Assembly (NCBI RefSeq): GCF_020630935.1
Contig: NZ_JAHDIG010000005.1
Span: 64,001 to 113,529, forward strand
Reading direction: 5' to 3'
From: Bernardetia sp.
GTDB taxonomy: Bacteria > Bacteroidota > Bacteroidia > Cytophagales > Bernardetiaceae
Length of the DNA stretch: 49,529 bases
The translations under genes were made by a program, and so were the position numbers. The notes below the pieces were generated by a model. It did no database searches. It was not told where the DNA came from and saw nothing but the letters and a program-made list of their open reading frames with translations. Below are positions 11,463-45,445 of the stretch, piece after piece (within the stretch, counting starts at the first letter, position 1; each line of letters opens with the position of its first letter).

Positions 11463-11505
11463 ATTATTTTGAAACAATAAAATTAGATTTTTAGTAATTT
11501 ACATT

Positions 11506-11534
11506 AAGGATAGGGTTTCCCTTATCCTTTTTTG
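11506..11534 (+). terminator. Rho-independent terminator after hflX (AAGGATAGGG-ttt-CCCTTATCCTT + T-run)
   Basis: Perfect 10-bp stem followed by TTTTTT. Confidence 0.7.
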
Positions 11535-11602
11535 TATGCAATGAAATATGTAGAGATAAGGCTTGCCTTATTTTAATTGAGATAGTAATTTTTTTAATAC
11601 AC

Positions 11603-19450: not shown

Positions 19451-20083
19451 TTATTTAAGCATTCTCTCAATCATTTTCCAATGCGTTATGAGTAAATCCT
19501 CTTTTGTAAGTGAAAAATAATGTTCTATAATATTTATTTTTCGCTTCATGACCTGCAAAACACCCGTAAACTGACTCCAAAGTACAAAAGCTGTCTCAAA
19601 TGGATTGCCTTGTTCAGTAATACTGCCATCTTTTATACCTTCTTTGATGGCTCTTACCAAAATAGAAATCACAGCATTTCCTTCTTCTAAAGCTTGCAAC
19701 GACTCGGTTTCAGCAGAAGCTAGATTAAATGTATCGTTTTCATAATCTAAAATAGTTGTAAAGTAATTCGGATATTTTTCTGAAAACTCAACATACGTCT
19801 TTCCTACAATAATCACTTTCTCATAGCCAGAATTTCCTTCTTTGATAGCTTCACGCAGCATTTTTTTAAGGATAATGAAACCTCTTAAAATAATGGCTCT
19901 ATACAATTCTTCTTTACTTTTGAAATAAAGGTATAATGTTCCTTTACTCAACTCTGCTGCTTTGGCGACTTGTGCCATAGTAGCCACTGAAAAACCGTGT
20001 TTGAAAATTACGTCTTCGGCTGCATCAACGATCGCATTTCTTCTATGCACCCTTTCTCGTGCCTTTCGTTCTGCTATTCCCAT
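19451..20083 (-). CDS. TetR/AcrR-family transcriptional regulator
   Basis: 210 aa with the N-terminal HTH FSVATMAQVAKAAELSKGTLYLYF. It lies upstream of the SDR gene on the same strand. Confidence 0.8.
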   Translation of the reverse strand: MGIAERKARERVHRRNAIVDAAEDVIFKHGFSVATMAQVAKAAELSKGTLYLYFKSKEELYRAIILRGFIILKKMLREAIKEGNSGYEKVIIVGKTYVEFSEKYPNYFTTILDYENDTFNLASAETESLQALEEGNAVISILVRAIKEGIKDGSITEQGNPFETAFVLWSQFTGVLQVMKRKINIIEHYFSLTKEDLLITHWKMIERMLK

Positions 20084-20426: not shown

Positions 20427-21134
20427 TTACTGTAAAAGCAATTTTTTTCCGTATTTTTTATCTAATTCTGTAAAAGCAATTTGTCTTTTAGAAGAAGTCT
20501 TCGAAACTCTTACTTTATCAGCCATTTTTTTGTATTCTTTAATAAGATTTTTCTCTTCTTGTGGTTCAAAGAAGTAAATATAACCCGCTGTCATTCCCTT
20601 CATCGTATCTTCTTCGTCATTGAGGTCAATAAAATCTCCTAAAAAAGGAATAAAACGGAAAAACATCAAGAAGTTCATATTGACAGGGTTTTTGTCTATC
20701 GTTTGAGCTAATGTTTTATCTACAATAGCAATTTCTTGTCCTTTATTTACTCCCAAAATATCATCAAAATAAATAATGCCTTCCTCTACATCTATATCAA
20801 CAATTCTGAAAAGAGAGGTGTACGATTTTTCAAATGAAGGCACAAACTTGTTAAGTAAAGAAATCTCTTCTGCTTCTTTTTGTTCTTCTAAGAAAATTTC
20901 ATACGACTTGTATTTATTTACTTGTTGTTCTAAAAGAACATAATCTATAAAACATTTTTGATGCTCGTTGGTAGCAAATTGTATTTTTGTAGCATTATCA
21001 TTTCCTAAAACACTACCAAATGCTGGCACAGCTTCTTGTATAAAATATCCATTATAAGCATCAAAAACAGCTTGAAGGCTTTTCGTCATATCTTGTCCAA
21101 ATGTCTTGTAATAACTTAGCGTGTAGTCTTCCAT
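20427..21134 (-). CDS. Hypothetical protein divergent from recA
   Basis: 235 aa with no recognisable motif. It shares the recA upstream region that carries the duplicated palindromic element. Confidence 0.5.
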   Translation of the reverse strand: MEDYTLSYYKTFGQDMTKSLQAVFDAYNGYFIQEAVPAFGSVLGNDNATKIQFATNEHQKCFIDYVLLEQQVNKYKSYEIFLEEQKEAEEISLLNKFVPSFEKSYTSLFRIVDIDVEEGIIYFDDILGVNKGQEIAIVDKTLAQTIDKNPVNMNFLMFFRFIPFLGDFIDLNDEEDTMKGMTAGYIYFFEPQEEKNLIKEYKKMADKVRVSKTSSKRQIAFTELDKKYGKKLLLQ

Positions 21135-21265
21135 AGTTCTATATCTATAAAAATTTGTTTTTAATAAAAATTGTCAAAACCTAATAGGCTTGCAAAAATA
21201 CGAAAAATAATAGCGATACAGCTTCAATGAAAGCAAAAGAGAGTCGCTCAAAATAAATTTCAAAT

Positions 21266-21329
21266 TATTTTTTACAACGTACATCATTTACGTTCTGCTC
21301 TATTTATTTTGTAGTATCCTTATAAGAAG
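21266..21329. promoter_or_regulatory. recA-upstream repeat, copy A (about 60 bp) carrying the palindrome AACGTA-N7-TACGTT (21276-21294) and a TTTG/TA-rich promoter-like segment
   Basis: About 95% identical to copy B, which lies 139 bp downstream. Confidence 0.5.
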
Positions 21330-21406
21330 AGGTAATCAAATGACAAGTATAGCAGTTGAAACAGTTTTTGAGAGAAAACAAAAAATTAATGTTTTTTTAG
21401 AAAAAA

Positions 21407-21468
21407 TATTTTACAACGTACATCACTTACGTTCTGCTCTATTTATTTTGTAGTATCCTTAGAAGACA
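21407..21468. promoter_or_regulatory. recA-upstream repeat, copy B, palindrome at 21415-21433, ending about 58 bp before the recA ATG
   Basis: Near-identical to copy A, with two substitutions in the aligned core. Confidence 0.5.
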
Positions 21469-21525: not shown

Positions 21526-22677
21526 ATGGCAAAAGGAGCTGACGACAACAAGAAAAAACTAGAGGCTTTGAAAGTAACTCTAGCAAAACTAGACAAAACC
21601 TACGGCAAAGGAACAGTTATGAAACTAACTGACGACAATGTAGTAGATGTTCCAAGTATCTCAACAGGTTCATTAGGACTTGATATTGCACTCGGCATTG
21701 GAGGACTTCCTCGTGGTAGAGTAGTAGAAATTTATGGACCTGAATCTTCTGGTAAAACAACACTTACACTACACGCCATTGCAGAAGCACAACGCCAAGG
21801 AGGATTAGCTGCATTTATCGATGCAGAACATGCTTTTGATAGAGTGTATGCTCAAAACTTAGGCGTAGATTTGGATAATCTTCTTATCTCACAGCCTGAT
21901 AGTGGTGAACAAGCCTTAGAAATTGCAGAGCAGCTTATTCGTTCAACAGCGATTGATATTGTAGTTATTGACTCGGTAGCTGCACTTGTTCCAAAAGCAG
22001 AATTAGAAGGCGATATGGGAGATTCTAAAATGGGTCTGCAAGCACGTCTAATGTCACAAGCACTTCGTAAACTGACTGGTGTAATCAGCAAAACACAGTG
22101 TACTTGTATCTTCATTAACCAACTTCGTGATAAGATTGGGGTAATGTTTGGAAGCCCAGAGACTACAACAGGTGGTAATGCTCTCAAATTTTACTCTTCT
22201 GTACGTTTGGATATTCGTCGTATTGGTGCAATCAAAGATGGCGACAAAATTACTGGTAACCGTACTCGTGTGAGTGTGAAGAAAAACAAACTTGCTCCTC
22301 CATTCAAACAAGTTGAGTTTGATATTATGTACGGAAAAGGTATCTCTAAGGCAGGTGAAGTCTTAGATTTGGCAGTAGAACTTGACGTAGTGAAAAAATC
22401 GGGTTCTTGGTACTCTTACGGAGACAACAAACTCGGACAAGGACGTGATTCTGTAAAAGCTCTTATCGAAGAAGATGAGGCATTAATGGCAGAACTTGAA
22501 GAACAACTTCGTGAGCTAGATAAAGCCAACAATACGGCTGGAAAAGACTCAAAGTCTTCTAAAAAAGATAATAAAGCAGAAAAAGCTATCAAAGCTACTG
22601 CTGAAGTTCAGAATGAAGACGAAGACAGCGACGAAGATTTTGTCTTTGAAGACGAAGAATTAGAAGATGGAAAATAA
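21526..22677 (+). CDS. recA: Recombinase RecA
   Basis: 383 aa with Walker [10 protein letters not shown] and an acidic C-terminal tail. Confidence 0.95.
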
Positions 22678-27337: not shown

Positions 27338-28522
27338 TTAAAGAATTTCAGTTACCTGACCAGCACCTACTGTACGTCCACCTTCACGGATAGCGAAACG
27401 AAGACCTTTTTCCATTGCGATAGGCTTGATAAGCTCAACTGTGATAGTGATGTTATCACCTGGCATTACCATTTCTACGTTTTCTGGAAGTTCAATAGCA
27501 CCAGTTACGTCAGTTGTACGGAAGTAGAACTGTGGGTTATATCCTTTAAAGAATGGAGTGTGACGACCACCTTCTTCTTTCTTCAATACGTAAACCTCAG
27601 CTTTGAATTTAGTGTGAGTAGTTACTGTACCTGGTTTAGCGATTACCATTCCACGCTTGATTTGCTCTTTATCAACACCACGTAAAAGGATACCAGCGTT
27701 ATCACCAGCTTCTGCAGCATCTAATAATTTACGGAACATCTCTACACCAGTAACAGTAGATTTGATAGGAGCTTCGCCTAATCCTAAGATTTCAACTGGC
27801 TCACCTACTTTGATAGCACCACGCTCTACACGACCAGTAGCAACAGTACCACGACCTGTGATAGAGAATACGTCCTCAACTGGCATCAAGAAAGGCTTGT
27901 CAGTAATACGAGGAGGCAATGGAATACCTTCATCAACAGAAGACATAAGAGAAAGAACAGTATCAACCCACTTGCCTTCGCCGTTCAATGCACCAAGTGC
28001 AGAACCTTGAACAACAGGGATGTTGTCACCGTCAAATTCGTAGAAGCTCAAAAGCTCACGAATTTCCATTTCTACAAGCTCTAAAAGTTCTTCGTCATCT
28101 ACCATATCTACTTTGTTCATGAAAACAACGATAGCAGGTACACCAACTTGGCGAGCTAAAAGGATGTGTTCACGAGTTTGAGGCATAGGACCATCAGTAG
28201 CAGCTACTACTAGGATAGCACCGTCCATTTGAGCAGCACCTGTAACCATGTTTTTAACATAATCGGCGTGACCTGGACAGTCTACGTGAGCGTAGTGACG
28301 ATTTTCAGTTTCGTACTCTACGTGAGAAGTGTTGATAGTGATACCACGCTCTTTTTCTTCAGGAGCGTTGTCAATTGAATCAAAACTACGAGCAGCAGAG
28401 TGACCTGCGTCTGCTAATACTTTTGTAATTGCTGCAGTTAAAGTAGTTTTACCGTGGTCAACGTGACCAATAGTTCCGATGTTTACGTGAGGTTTCGCTC
28501 GGTTGAAGGTTTCCTTAGCCAT
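27338..28522 (-). CDS. tuf: Elongation factor Tu
   Basis: 394 aa with [18 protein letters not shown] and NKVD; EF-Tu throughout. Confidence 0.97.
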
Positions 28523-28611: not shown

Positions 28612-28683
28612 AGCCAACGATGGGAATTGAACCCACGACCTCTTCCTTACCAAGGAAGCGCTCTACCCCTGAGCTACATCGGC
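28612..28683 (-). tRNA. tRNA-Thr (anticodon GGT)
   Basis: Cloverleaf read by hand: GCCGATGTAGCTCAGGGGTAGAGCGCTTCCTTGGTAAGGAAGAGGTCGTGGGTTCAATTCCCATCGTTGGCT. Both the T-arm GTGGG-TTCAATT-CCCAT and the acceptor stem GCCGATG/CGTTGGC require G-U wobble pairs, and the anticodon loop is CTTGGTAAG. Confidence 0.85.
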
Positions 28684-28835
28684 TTATAGCACTATACAAA
28701 CTTTCCATACTCTATTATCTTTATTTAAAATTTTGAAAATTTTAAAATCAGAACATAGTGAAAAGTTTGTATTCAATTAGTGTTATCTAATGCTGCTATA
28801 AAAAATACCAATAGTTACGTATCAGATTATATTTG

Positions 28836-28908
28836 AGCGAGAGACGAGGCTCGAACCCGCGACCTACAGCTTGGAAGGCTGTCGCTCTACCAACTGAGCT
28901 ACTCTCGC
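28836..28908 (-). tRNA. tRNA-Gly (anticodon TCC)
   Basis: GCGAGAGTAGCTCAGTTGGTAGAGC...anticodon loop CTTCCAA...TTCGAGC T-loop, acceptor stem GCGAGAG/CTCTCGC. Confidence 0.85.
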
Positions 28909-29016
28909 TTATTAATTTAGATTGAAATTAAAATTAATTTCAAAATTTGGTTTTGTTTGATATGAATCAAATATTTATTCCTAATGAATAAATGATAGTT
29001 TAATGAAAACTATTTG

Positions 29017-29099
29017 TGGGGGGAGCAGGATTCGAACCTGCGAAGAAATTAATCAACGGATTTACAGTCCGTCCCAGTTGGCCGCTTTGGTATCCCCCC
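29017..29099 (-). tRNA. tRNA-Tyr (anticodon GTA), long variable arm
   Basis: GGGGGGATACCAAAGCGGCCAACTGGGACGGACTGTAAATCCGT...GCAGGTTCGAATCCTGCTCCCCCCA; type II tRNA with an 83-nt length. Confidence 0.85.
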
Positions 29100-43591: not shown

Positions 43592-45415
43592 ATGTCAAAC
43601 GTAGCAGAACAAGAAGCGTTGAAAGAAGCCCTAAGAGGAGGCGAATTTTTAATTAAAGAATCTTCAGCAGATGATATTTTTATCCCTGAAGAATTTTCTG
43701 AAGAGCAGCAGATGATGGCAAAAGCCACTGATGACTTTGTAAATATGGAAATTACTCCTATTGCAGAGAAAATTGATAAAATGCAAGACCCAGAGCTTAT
43801 GCCTTCACTTCTTACTAAGGCTGGCGAACTTGGTCTTTTGGGGATTGGTGTACCAGAAGATTTAGACGGACTTGGAATGAGCTTCAACACAACTATGCTT
43901 ATTGCAGATGTTGTAGGTTCAGCAGGCTCTTTCTCAACAGCTTACGGAGCGCACACAGGAATCGGAACACTTCCAATTTTGTATTATGGCAACGAAGAGC
44001 AAAAGAAAAAATATATTCCTAAACTAGCTACTGGTGAGTGGAAAGCGTGTTACTGTTTGACAGAGCCAGATGCAGGCTCGGATGCAAACTCTGGAAAAAC
44101 TAAGGCAGTTTTGTCAGAAGATGGAAAATATTATTCTATCACTGGACAGAAAATGTGGATAACAAACGGTGGTTTTGCTGATGTATTTATTGTATTTGCT
44201 CGTATTGAAGACGATAAAAACCTTACAGCATTCATCGTAGAGCGTAATTATAACGGAATTACAATGAACGAAGAAGAGCAAAAACTAGGCATCAAAGGTT
44301 CTTCTACTCGTCAGATATTCTTCAACGATACAAAAGTTCCTGTTGAGAATATGCTTTCAGAGCGTGGTAATGGTTTCAAAATCGCTGTAAATATTCTTAA
44401 CATCGGTCGTATCAAATTGGGTGCTGGCGTATTGAATGGTTGTCGCCAAGTGATTCGTTATTCTGTTCGTTATGGAAATGAGCGTAAGCAGTTTAATACT
44501 CCAATTTCTTCTTTTGGAGCAATCAAGTATAAATTAGCTGAAATGACTGCTCGTAACTATGCGACAGAATCGTTGTGTTATGCAGCAGGTCAAGATATTG
44601 ACGACCGTATTACATATTTGCGTAAGTCAGGTATGGATGCAGCAGAATCTAAGCTCAAAGGTGTAGAAGAATTTGCCATTGAGTGTGCGATTGCTAAAGT
44701 ACACGGTTCTGAAACATTAGATTACTGTGTAGATGAAGGCGTACAGATTTATGGTGGTATGGGATTCTCTGAAGATGCTCCTATGGCTCGTGCGTATCGT
44801 GATGCACGTATTGCACGTATTTATGAAGGTACGAACGAAATTAACCGTATGCTTTTGGTAGGAATGATTTTACGTCGTGCTATGAAAGGCGATTTGGATG
44901 TTCTTTCACATGCAAAAGCAGTAGGAAAAGAACTTCTTCAAATGCCTGCACCAGCAAATATTGACCGTACACAACCATTTGCAGCAGAAAAAGAACTTAT
45001 TTCTCGTATGAAGAAAGCTGTTTTGATGGTAGCAGGAAAAGCTGCTCAAACATTTGGTCCAAAACTTAATGATGAGCAAATTCTTTTGATGGCTGTTGCT
45101 GATATGATTATTGAAGTATATGCAGCAGAAACGTCTATTATGCGTGCTGAAAAATTAGTTCGTCAGCATGGAGAAAGTGTAGATGGAATCAAAGCTAAAT
45201 TGGCGAAACTTTATCTTCAATTAGCTGTAAACAAGTTAGAGCAAAAAGGACGTGAAGCGATTTCTTGTTTCTCTAAAGGCGATGAGATGCGTGTTCTTTT
45301 GATGGGCTTGAAGCGTTTTACTAAGCACGAGCCAATCAATCAGCGTGAACTTCGCCACGAAATTGCAGACCACATGATTGAGAAAAATGATTATGCGTAT
45401 AAACTTTGGGCGTAA
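43592..45415 (+). CDS. Acyl-CoA dehydrogenase (long FadE-like form)
   Basis: 607 aa with CLTEPDAGSDA, ACAD middle and C-terminal domains, and an extended C-terminal region. Confidence 0.8.
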   Translation: MSNVAEQEALKEALRGGEFLIKESSADDIFIPEEFSEEQQMMAKATDDFVNMEITPIAEKIDKMQDPELMPSLLTKAGELGLLGIGVPEDLDGLGMSFNTTMLIADVVGSAGSFSTAYGAHTGIGTLPILYYGNEEQKKKYIPKLATGEWKACYCLTEPDAGSDANSGKTKAVLSEDGKYYSITGQKMWITNGGFADVFIVFARIEDDKNLTAFIVERNYNGITMNEEEQKLGIKGSSTRQIFFNDTKVPVENMLSERGNGFKIAVNILNIGRIKLGAGVLNGCRQVIRYSVRYGNERKQFNTPISSFGAIKYKLAEMTARNYATESLCYAAGQDIDDRITYLRKSGMDAAESKLKGVEEFAIECAIAKVHGSETLDYCVDEGVQIYGGMGFSEDAPMARAYRDARIARIYEGTNEINRMLLVGMILRRAMKGDLDVLSHAKAVGKELLQMPAPANIDRTQPFAAEKELISRMKKAVLMVAGKAAQTFGPKLNDEQILLMAVADMIIEVYAAETSIMRAEKLVRQHGESVDGIKAKLAKLYLQLAVNKLEQKGREAISCFSKGDEMRVLLMGLKRFTKHEPINQRELRHEIADHMIEKNDYAYKLWA

Positions 45416-45445
45416 TTTAATTACGAATTATCAATTATAAATTAC
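45411..45445. repeat. Degenerate tandem heptamer array (NNAATTA)n: GCGTAAT TTAATTA CGAATTA TCAATTA TAAATTA CGAATTG
   Basis: It overlaps the acyl-CoA DH stop codon and belongs to the same AATTACG family as 10196-10223 and 29853-29880. Confidence 0.55.

Follow-up and report, generated by a model that had tools for sequence, protein, structure and literature searches.

The recA locus and its upstream repeat

The window analysed in this study is a 49,529-nt (49.5-kb) stretch of DNA from Bernardetia sp., with a G+C content of approximately 34%. Bernardetia belongs to the family Bernardetiaceae in the order Cytophagales of the Bacteroidota. The RecA encoded in the window was 100% identical to Bernardetia sp. 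RecA, and recA is transcribed divergently from a DUF7986-like gene. A repeat search of the region between the two genes revealed a two-copy direct repeat of 66 nt with 92% identity and an offset of 139 bp (21262-21327 and 21401-21466). As shown in Table 1, the copies were designated A and B. When they were aligned at the 139-bp offset, 56 of 58 positions were identical, and the mismatches were located at 21287 (T/C) and 21323 (T/G). When the 391-nt intergenic region was shuffled 200 times, repeats with two or fewer mismatches reached at most 19 nt. A near-identical duplication with two mismatches and this offset had been reported in a preliminary description of the same DNA and was confirmed here. 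The palindromes AACGTA-N7-TACGTT, which the description had placed at 21276-21294 and 21415-21433, were found with no mismatches at these two positions and nowhere else in the window. Its end of copy B, about 58 bp before the recA ATG, agreed with our value of 57-59 nt, but its start of that copy, 21407, was about 2 nt too early.

Table 1. Coordinates of the features at the recA locus of the window
Feature	Coordinates	Strand	Basis or remark
DUF7986-like gene	20427..21134	-	divergent from recA
-7 box of the DUF7986-like gene, TATTTTTG	21193..21200	-	conserved
Candidate distal promoter module, copy A	21270..21327	+	58 nt, 2 mismatches to copy B; ungapped alignment
Dyad A, ACAACGTA-CATCATT-TACGTTCT	21274..21296	none	CGTA 21278-21281, TACG 21289-21292, centre 21285
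-7 box of module A, TTATTTTG	21304..21311	+	Bacteroidota consensus TAnnTTTG
Predicted transcription start of module A	~21316-21319		
Spacer between modules	21328..21408	+	A/T-rich, poorly conserved
Candidate proximal promoter module, copy B	21409..21466	+	repeat and 20-module alignment
Dyad B, ACAACGTA-CATCACT-TACGTTCT	21413..21435	none	CGTA 21417-21420, TACG 21428-21431, centre 21424
-7 box of module B, TTATTTTG	21443..21450	+	
Predicted transcription start of module B	~21455-21458		predicted leader of ~70 nt
recA	21526..22677	+	ORF list; RecA Pfam domains; would be served by both modules

Neighbouring genes and sites were also examined. The preliminary description had suggested that the palindrome perhaps also controls the divergent DUF7986-like gene. 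Such control is not needed, as this gene has its own conserved -7 box. The gene was rejected as a target or regulator because of this conserved promoter, and it was not beside recA in 4 of the 8 Bernardetia genomes or assemblies examined. Just upstream of its -7 box, a block CTGTATCGCTATTATT was conserved in B. litoralis, OM2101, L090, and L247 (box and block within 21193-21232, minus strand), and this block may be a separate regulatory site. A TetR gene at 19451-20083 was rejected as the regulator because its synteny with recA is not conserved.

An exact match to the CGTA-N7-TACG core was also found outside this locus, in CGTAATTTAATTACG at 45411-45425. The match includes part of the stop codon of an acyl-CoA dehydrogenase gene, lacks a -7 box, and is surrounded by repeated AATTACGAATT words between convergent genes. 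We therefore rejected it as a functional site; the match is probably due to chance or to a terminator region. Three tRNA genes (28612-29099, minus strand) adjoin the elongation factor Tu gene (27338-28522).

Each copy joins a dyad to a -7 box at fixed spacing

Both copies were found to contain the same module, in which the dyad core CGTA-N7-TACG is followed by 11 nt and then by the -7 box. The core can also be read as CGTAA-N5-TTACG, and the dyad extends over 15-23 bp. The -7 box of the window matched 7 of the 8 positions of TAnnTTTG, and a perfect TAATTTTG was present in most relatives. The TTTG-containing segment that had been called promoter-like in the preliminary description is thus real and corresponds to the Bacteroidota -7 box. 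Copy A was then aligned without gaps with 19 other modules from 9 further genomes or assemblies. In these 20 units, GTA and TTACG of the dyad were invariant, and C preceded GTA in 95%. An A and a T in the spacer, TCT past the right arm, and T and TTTG of the -7 box were also invariant.

The gap between TACG and the box was 11 nt in the 20 Bernardetiaceae modules and in L091, L092, and L258 (Rapidithrix). In the metagenome loci described below, which number at least 120, the spacing was set by the search pattern, and about ten sites were independent of that pattern. Box-independent sites were present in L092, L143, L160, and L166 and in the degenerate middle unit of L090. When the loci were searched with the operator core only, all five additional intergenic sites (5/5) carried a box or near-box at 11 nt. 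If transcription begins about 7 nt past the -7 box, the centre of the dyad would lie near -33. Rigid spacing between an operator and the promoter box is typical of activator-dependent promoters (PMC13004042), which suggests that the module is an activator-type promoter. The -33 element TTTG/TTG, about 19 nt upstream, was absent from the modules. Among 44 other candidate promoters of Bernardetia, however, just 6 had it, and because of this rarity we dropped its absence as an argument for an activator.

The arms of the dyad were compared among relatives. They were AACGTA/TACGTT or TACGTA/TACGTT in Bernardetia and ACCGTA/TACGGT in Hugenholtzia and in L088. This is a symmetric change from A-T to C-G at the fifth arm position, which keeps the dyad and represents a single evolutionary event, so that its statistical weight is low. 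When the partner arm was slid by 1-3 columns, pairing fell from 82% to 12-40%. The repeat ACGTAC-N7-ACGTTC, which the preliminary description had offered as a second reading of the palindrome, is excluded by the symmetric change, since in Hugenholtzia and L088 the inverted repeat alone survives. The symmetry suggests that the dyad is the binding site of a dimeric regulator.

The module is conserved and multiplied upstream of recA in Bernardetia

The recA loci of relatives were obtained via exact RecA proteins. Seven other Bernardetia genomes or assemblies carried two or three tandem modules upstream of recA. Two copies were found in B. litoralis DSM 6794 and L089, and three in Wsw4-3y2-type strains, OM2101, ABR2-2B, and L090. 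A single module was present at recA in Hugenholtzia roseola, the MAGs L088 and L091, the JGI contig L092, and Rapidithrix thailandica (Flammeovirgaceae). Among the matches listed, the dyad was absent before recA in 80 more distant recA loci (RecA identity ≤80%), and three of these 80 had the published CTAA-N5-TTAG box instead, at a variable distance from the recA start. No module was seen at other Bernardetia genes in approximately 240 kb of Bernardetiaceae sequence.

The history of the copies was examined by comparing flanks and cores separately. For the 15-nt flanks of each unit, the best match was the unit at the same position in another Bernardetia species, and the upstream flank of copy A in the window was identical to the middle-copy flanks of two other strains. 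For the 44-nt cores, the best match was the sister copy within the genome, with 98% identity here. Since the flanks are orthologous by position and the cores are alike within each genome, the duplication is older than the species, and concerted evolution acts on the cores. Gene conversion probably keeps the cores alike. The preliminary description had left the choice between a recent duplication and selection on a duplicated operator-promoter unit; the comparison supported a selected site-promoter unit and not a recent accident.

The spacing between modules varied from 106 to 154 bp among genomes, and a constant helical phase was not seen. Cooperative looping between the copies was rejected on the basis of these spacings. 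The variable spacing without a common phase favours independent promoters over a looped array.

Two further arrangements were observed in relatives. In the Bernardetia-like metagenome contig L247, a recA-type module is followed after about 25 nt by the start of a transposase gene encoded on the other strand, at the place where another module or recA itself should lie. This may reflect an IS insertion or a rearrangement. In Rapidithrix thailandica (L258, 9716-10000), the module lies 285 nt 5' of the recA ATG, and the recA leader has a strong hairpin CAGACTTCTGAAG...CTTCAGAAGTCT with a T run in the loop, which looks like an attenuator.

The module precedes damage-type genes in metagenomes

The pattern of dyad plus box (19 fixed bases) was found in at least 120 metagenome loci. 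In 70 non-redundant metagenome units, the consensus was A-S-A-n-CGTAAATAGnTTACG-t-TCT, and positions left free by the pattern were also conserved (spacer A 0.91, G 0.80). In viral contigs, the operator-only pattern (15 bases) matched 45 times. None of the 45 carried a -7 box, as expected by chance, and they were rejected as real sites. A perfect AGAACGTA-N7-TACGTTCT was observed in one phage lineage (L098, L102, L104, and L136), apparently within coding sequence and with no -7 box.

Among the matches listed, the median distance from the box to the first downstream ORF was 23 nt. The downstream gene encoded a member of a 105-aa family in 30 of 101 cases, and the next most frequent products among these matches were RecA (18), an IS1595 transposase (12), a 156-171-aa family (10), and a 316-aa family (4). 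C5 DNA methyltransferases (3), Bcp (2), DinB (1), and SbcD (1) were also found. The targets of the module thus include repair and damage genes elsewhere in Bacteroidota, and within Bernardetia recA alone was seen. Other DNA-damage genes had been named in the preliminary description as places to look for the palindrome. In metagenomes the module was found before recA, dinB, and sbcD, and in the window the dyad was absent 5' of uvrC (11603) and of the photolyase gene (47734). The distribution suggests that the dyad marks a widespread DNA-damage-type gene set of Bacteroidota, of which we found no description in the literature searched.

Several of the downstream families have features of their own. 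The protein of about 105 aa is encoded monocistronically, has no Pfam match, and often ends in KQIRA (L139, L149, L156, L171, L176, and about 25 further loci); it may be a damage-induced small effector. In the IS1595-family transposase genes, the module lies inside the left end of the element (L138, L140, L148, L159, L198, L208, and others), and transposition may be tied to the same signal as recA. In L147, L179, L182, and L236, a second small gene comes after that of the 156-171-aa family, and a photolyase-like gene adjoins. A homologue of this second small gene is one of the site-driven genes beside the WYL gene in L248.

Genes for HTH-WYL-WCX proteins co-occur with the site

Candidate regulators were sought near the sites. 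The motif-bearing loci, approximately 0.93 Mb in total, contained four HTH-WYL-WCX genes, and recA loci that lack the motif (1.5 Mb) contained none. In L143, the WYL gene is within the site-driven operon, and in L248, two site-driven genes directly follow it. The WYL gene of L236 is 3 kb from the site, and that of Hugenholtzia (L087) is 4.3 kb from recA. The closest relatives of the site-adjacent WYL proteins with solved structures were PafBC, which was the best match, and DriD-type chains. The co-occurrence predicted a module in WYL-positive Rapidithrix, and it was found at recA.

A candidate cognate HTH-WYL-WCX gene was thus present in Hugenholtzia, Rapidithrix, L143, L236, and L248, but none was found in Bernardetia: none of all 95 matches to the Bernardetiaceae WYL queries was from Bernardetia in a shared-word search that can miss relatives below about 30% identity. 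Since a WYL regulator was sought in Bernardetia and not found, no family membership is claimed for it, and we do not file its module as a proven member of the DriD/DdaA family. The co-occurrence of WYL genes and sites could also be due merely to shared mobile or defence islands.

Comparison with promoters of WYL activators

The module has the form of a WYL-type site, with a dyad of 15-21 bp, CG-containing arms, and a spacer of 5-7 bp; this is a likeness of form and not of sequence. It also overlaps the -35-equivalent position, and its distance to the -7 box is constant across the 20 Bernardetiaceae modules, L091, L092, L258, and all five independent sites. DriD of Caulobacter crescentus binds ATACGAC-N7-GTCGTAT over the -35 position, with the same spacing to the -10 element in all of its promoters, among them those of didA, bapE, recJ, and dnaG (PMC13004042). 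The likeness extends to the pseudo-palindrome with a 7-bp spacer, the CG-containing arms, the promoter-fixed site, and a target set of damage genes with a small protein. DriD is an HTH-WYL-WCX protein, as are the products of the genes near the module sites. The half-site differs (TACGAC versus AACGTA here), the phylum is another, and a Bacteroidota -7 box takes part here. The WYL gene was not detected in Bernardetia. Tandem multiplication of a whole promoter is not mentioned in the parts of the DriD paper considered here (PMC13004042).

DdaA, a WYL activator of Moraxellaceae, recognises CGWCA-N5-TGWCG, and recA, repair genes, and restriction-modification systems are under its control (PMC12392091). 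When CGWCA-N5-TGWCG is compared with CGTAA-N5-TTACG, both have the same 15-bp CG...CG frame and there is one difference per arm. Restriction-modification systems belong to the DdaA regulon, and DNA methyltransferase genes are among the targets of the module. However, the sites of DdaA precede the start by about 50 bp (PMC12392091), whereas the centre near -33 is predicted here; the taxa are unrelated, and the regulator of the module is a candidate. In Actinobacteria, recA is activated independently of LexA by PafBC at RecA-NDp promoters, where the regulator site is joined to the -10 element at a fixed distance, and PafBC was the best solved-structure match of the WYL proteins beside the sites. 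RecA-NDp is non-palindromic and PafBC is a heterodimer, in contrast to the symmetric dyad of the module.

Proposed mechanism

We propose that each copy of the repeat is a complete, factor-dependent recA promoter. A dimeric DNA-binding protein would bind the dyad and act with RNA polymerase at the usual position of the -33 element. By analogy with the single-stranded DNA-sensing WYL activators DriD and DdaA, this protein would turn on recA after DNA damage. In Bernardetia, the whole module would have been amplified to two or three tandem copies, of which the window has two. The tandem copies would probably work as independent promoters that sum to a higher recA output, with gene conversion homogenising their cores. 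In this proposal, protein binding, activation rather than repression, induction by damage, the transcription starts, the additive effect of the copies, and the identity of the Bernardetia protein are the predicted elements. The repeat is most likely a factor-dependent promoter that responds to DNA damage and has been amplified in tandem, and we give the whole explanation a probability of roughly 55%.

Comparison with LexA systems and alternative explanations

The preliminary description had considered the palindrome a plausible SOS/LexA-type operator. The damage-type gene set elsewhere (recA, dinB, and sbcD) agrees with the first part of this suggestion. A LexA-type repressor operator is not supported, given the mismatch to the known boxes, the lack of an S24 gene near any of the at least 120 sites, and the rigid spacing. 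The canonical LexA boxes (E. coli CTGT-N8-ACAG and Cheo GAAC-N4-GTTC) resemble the dyad in being palindromes upstream of recA, but their sequence and spacing differ on direct reading, as had been stated earlier. Canonical LexA is reported to be absent from Bacteroidetes (PMC8565304). The palindrome also matched neither of the two published Bacteroidetes LexA motifs. CTAA-N5-TTAG did not occur in the window, and neither this box nor GGA-N5-TCC was found before recA in L081-L092. No S24 protein was encoded in the window.

CTAA...TTAG dyads were observed 5' of uvrC in some Bernardetia (L090, 3797-3809; L081, ~5900; L085, ~7990). In L090, CTAATTGGATTAG lies 117 nt before the uvrC start. These dyads resemble the published L2 LexA box, and none was present upstream of uvrC in the window (11463-11602).

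The non-canonical LexA boxes (PMC8565304) are nearer to the module. They come from the same phylum, have recA and dinB among their targets, and form a dyad with a 5-bp spacer if the present one is read as CGTAA-N5-TTACG; B. litoralis has two such regulators. The arm of the present dyad differs at the near-universal C, there is no S24 gene near the sites, and the spacing to the promoter is rigid here. GTAA/TTAC arms occurred in none of the 126 published L2 sites, and the outer arm position was C in nearly all of them. GTAA-N5-TTAC was therefore rejected as a plain variant of the published L2 LexA box, being absent from the published sites and having no S24 gene nearby; it was kept as part of a rival explanation.

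This rival holds that the dyad is an SOS-like operator, at which a repressor cleaved or inactivated on damage covers the -33 position of each recA promoter. The repressor could be one of the two L2-group LexA paralogues of B. litoralis with a diverged specificity. B. litoralis DSM 6794 does encode two L2-type homologues, WP_014797619.1 and WP_014799686.1 (PMC8565304, Table S9), paralogy is linked with motif divergence, and a diverged site of the dyad-N5-dyad type has been validated (PMC8565304). CGTAA-N5-TTACG and CTAA-N5-TTAG have TAA-N5-TTA and the 5-bp spacer in common. Occupancy over -33 can repress, the set of recA, dinB, and sbcD resembles an SOS regulon, and the failure to find a WYL gene in Bernardetia is in keeping with a repressor, within the identity limit of that search. 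However, LexA-type regulators are usually autoregulated, and when the window, the Bernardetiaceae loci, and the at least 120 motif loci listed were searched with an HMM of 13 published C-terminal domains, no S24 or L2-type regulator gene was detected. G was present at the outer arm position in 0 of 126 published L2 sites. Published boxes lie at -26, -98, and -104 from the recA start in three distant relatives, whereas the present dyad is fixed to the -7 box. We consider repression of this kind unlikely, although it is the rival that fared best.

A promoter read by an alternative sigma factor, in which dyad and box form one composite element with no separate regulator, would account for the rigid spacing and for the coherent set of downstream genes. 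It is quite improbable, because TAnnTTTG, which forms the downstream part, is the housekeeping -7 motif of Bacteroidota, and because the two-fold symmetric dyad and its symmetric change fit a dimer and not sigma region 4. GAAC...CGTT elements are 12 nt apart in the dyad. ECF-type promoters have elements of this type 16-17 nt apart.

We also considered whether the repeat works as RNA, namely as a hairpin in the 5' leader, a small RNA, or a leader peptide. Transcripts from module A would include dyad B and could form a 6-bp hairpin, and a 37-codon ORF at 21340-21453 (MTSIAVETVFERKQKINVFLEKIFYNVHHLRSALFIL), with GAGG upstream, reads into copy B. No Rfam match above chance was obtained, the leader folded no better than its shuffles (z = 0.38), and in single-copy species the dyad is upstream of the -7 box and would thus not be transcribed. 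Neither the ORF nor the spacer is conserved in relatives, so that the ORF was rejected as a leader peptide, and a role as RNA is very improbable. The near-identity of the copies could also be explained by a recent, neutral duplication or by a mobile element (MITE or att remnant) without a regulatory role, but this is equally hard to sustain, since tandem copies are present in every Bernardetia genome examined, the flanks orthologous by position indicate an old duplication, the unit occurs at recA only in the window and the loci instead of being scattered, and conservation falls on the positions of the dyad and the -7 box.

Implications

The non-canonical LexA system, with its two motifs, is the only DNA-damage control system of Bacteroidota that we found in the literature searched. 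It is reported to be absent or unassignable in several clades. CGTA-N7-TACG is a third motif, which is abundant in metagenomes, and its fusion to the promoter recalls the WYL activators of Caulobacter, Acinetobacter, and mycobacteria.

A broader interpretation of the activator-type promoter, which we put forward tentatively and at somewhat less than even odds, is that many Bacteroidota have a LexA-independent damage regulon. A WYL activator resembling DriD and DdaA would act on CGTAA-N5-TTACG fused to the -7 box. Bernardetia seems to lack the WYL gene; it would have retained the site for another protein or a diverged one, and its recA promoter would have been multiplied in tandem. If this is true, the regulon would comprise recA, dinB, sbcD, DNA methyltransferases, IS1595 transposases, and two families of small proteins, and it would either accompany or replace the non-canonical LexA system that was described in 2021.

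If confirmed, these results would provide a testable recA regulon in Cytophagales and other Bacteroidota, with a 15-bp site, a candidate regulator family, and a target list that includes two uncharacterised protein families and damage-linked IS1595 transposases. Bernardetia poses a puzzle, as the candidate WYL regulator is not detectable where the module is multiplied. At the same time, it would represent a clean example of a whole regulated promoter that has been amplified in tandem and homogenised by gene conversion.
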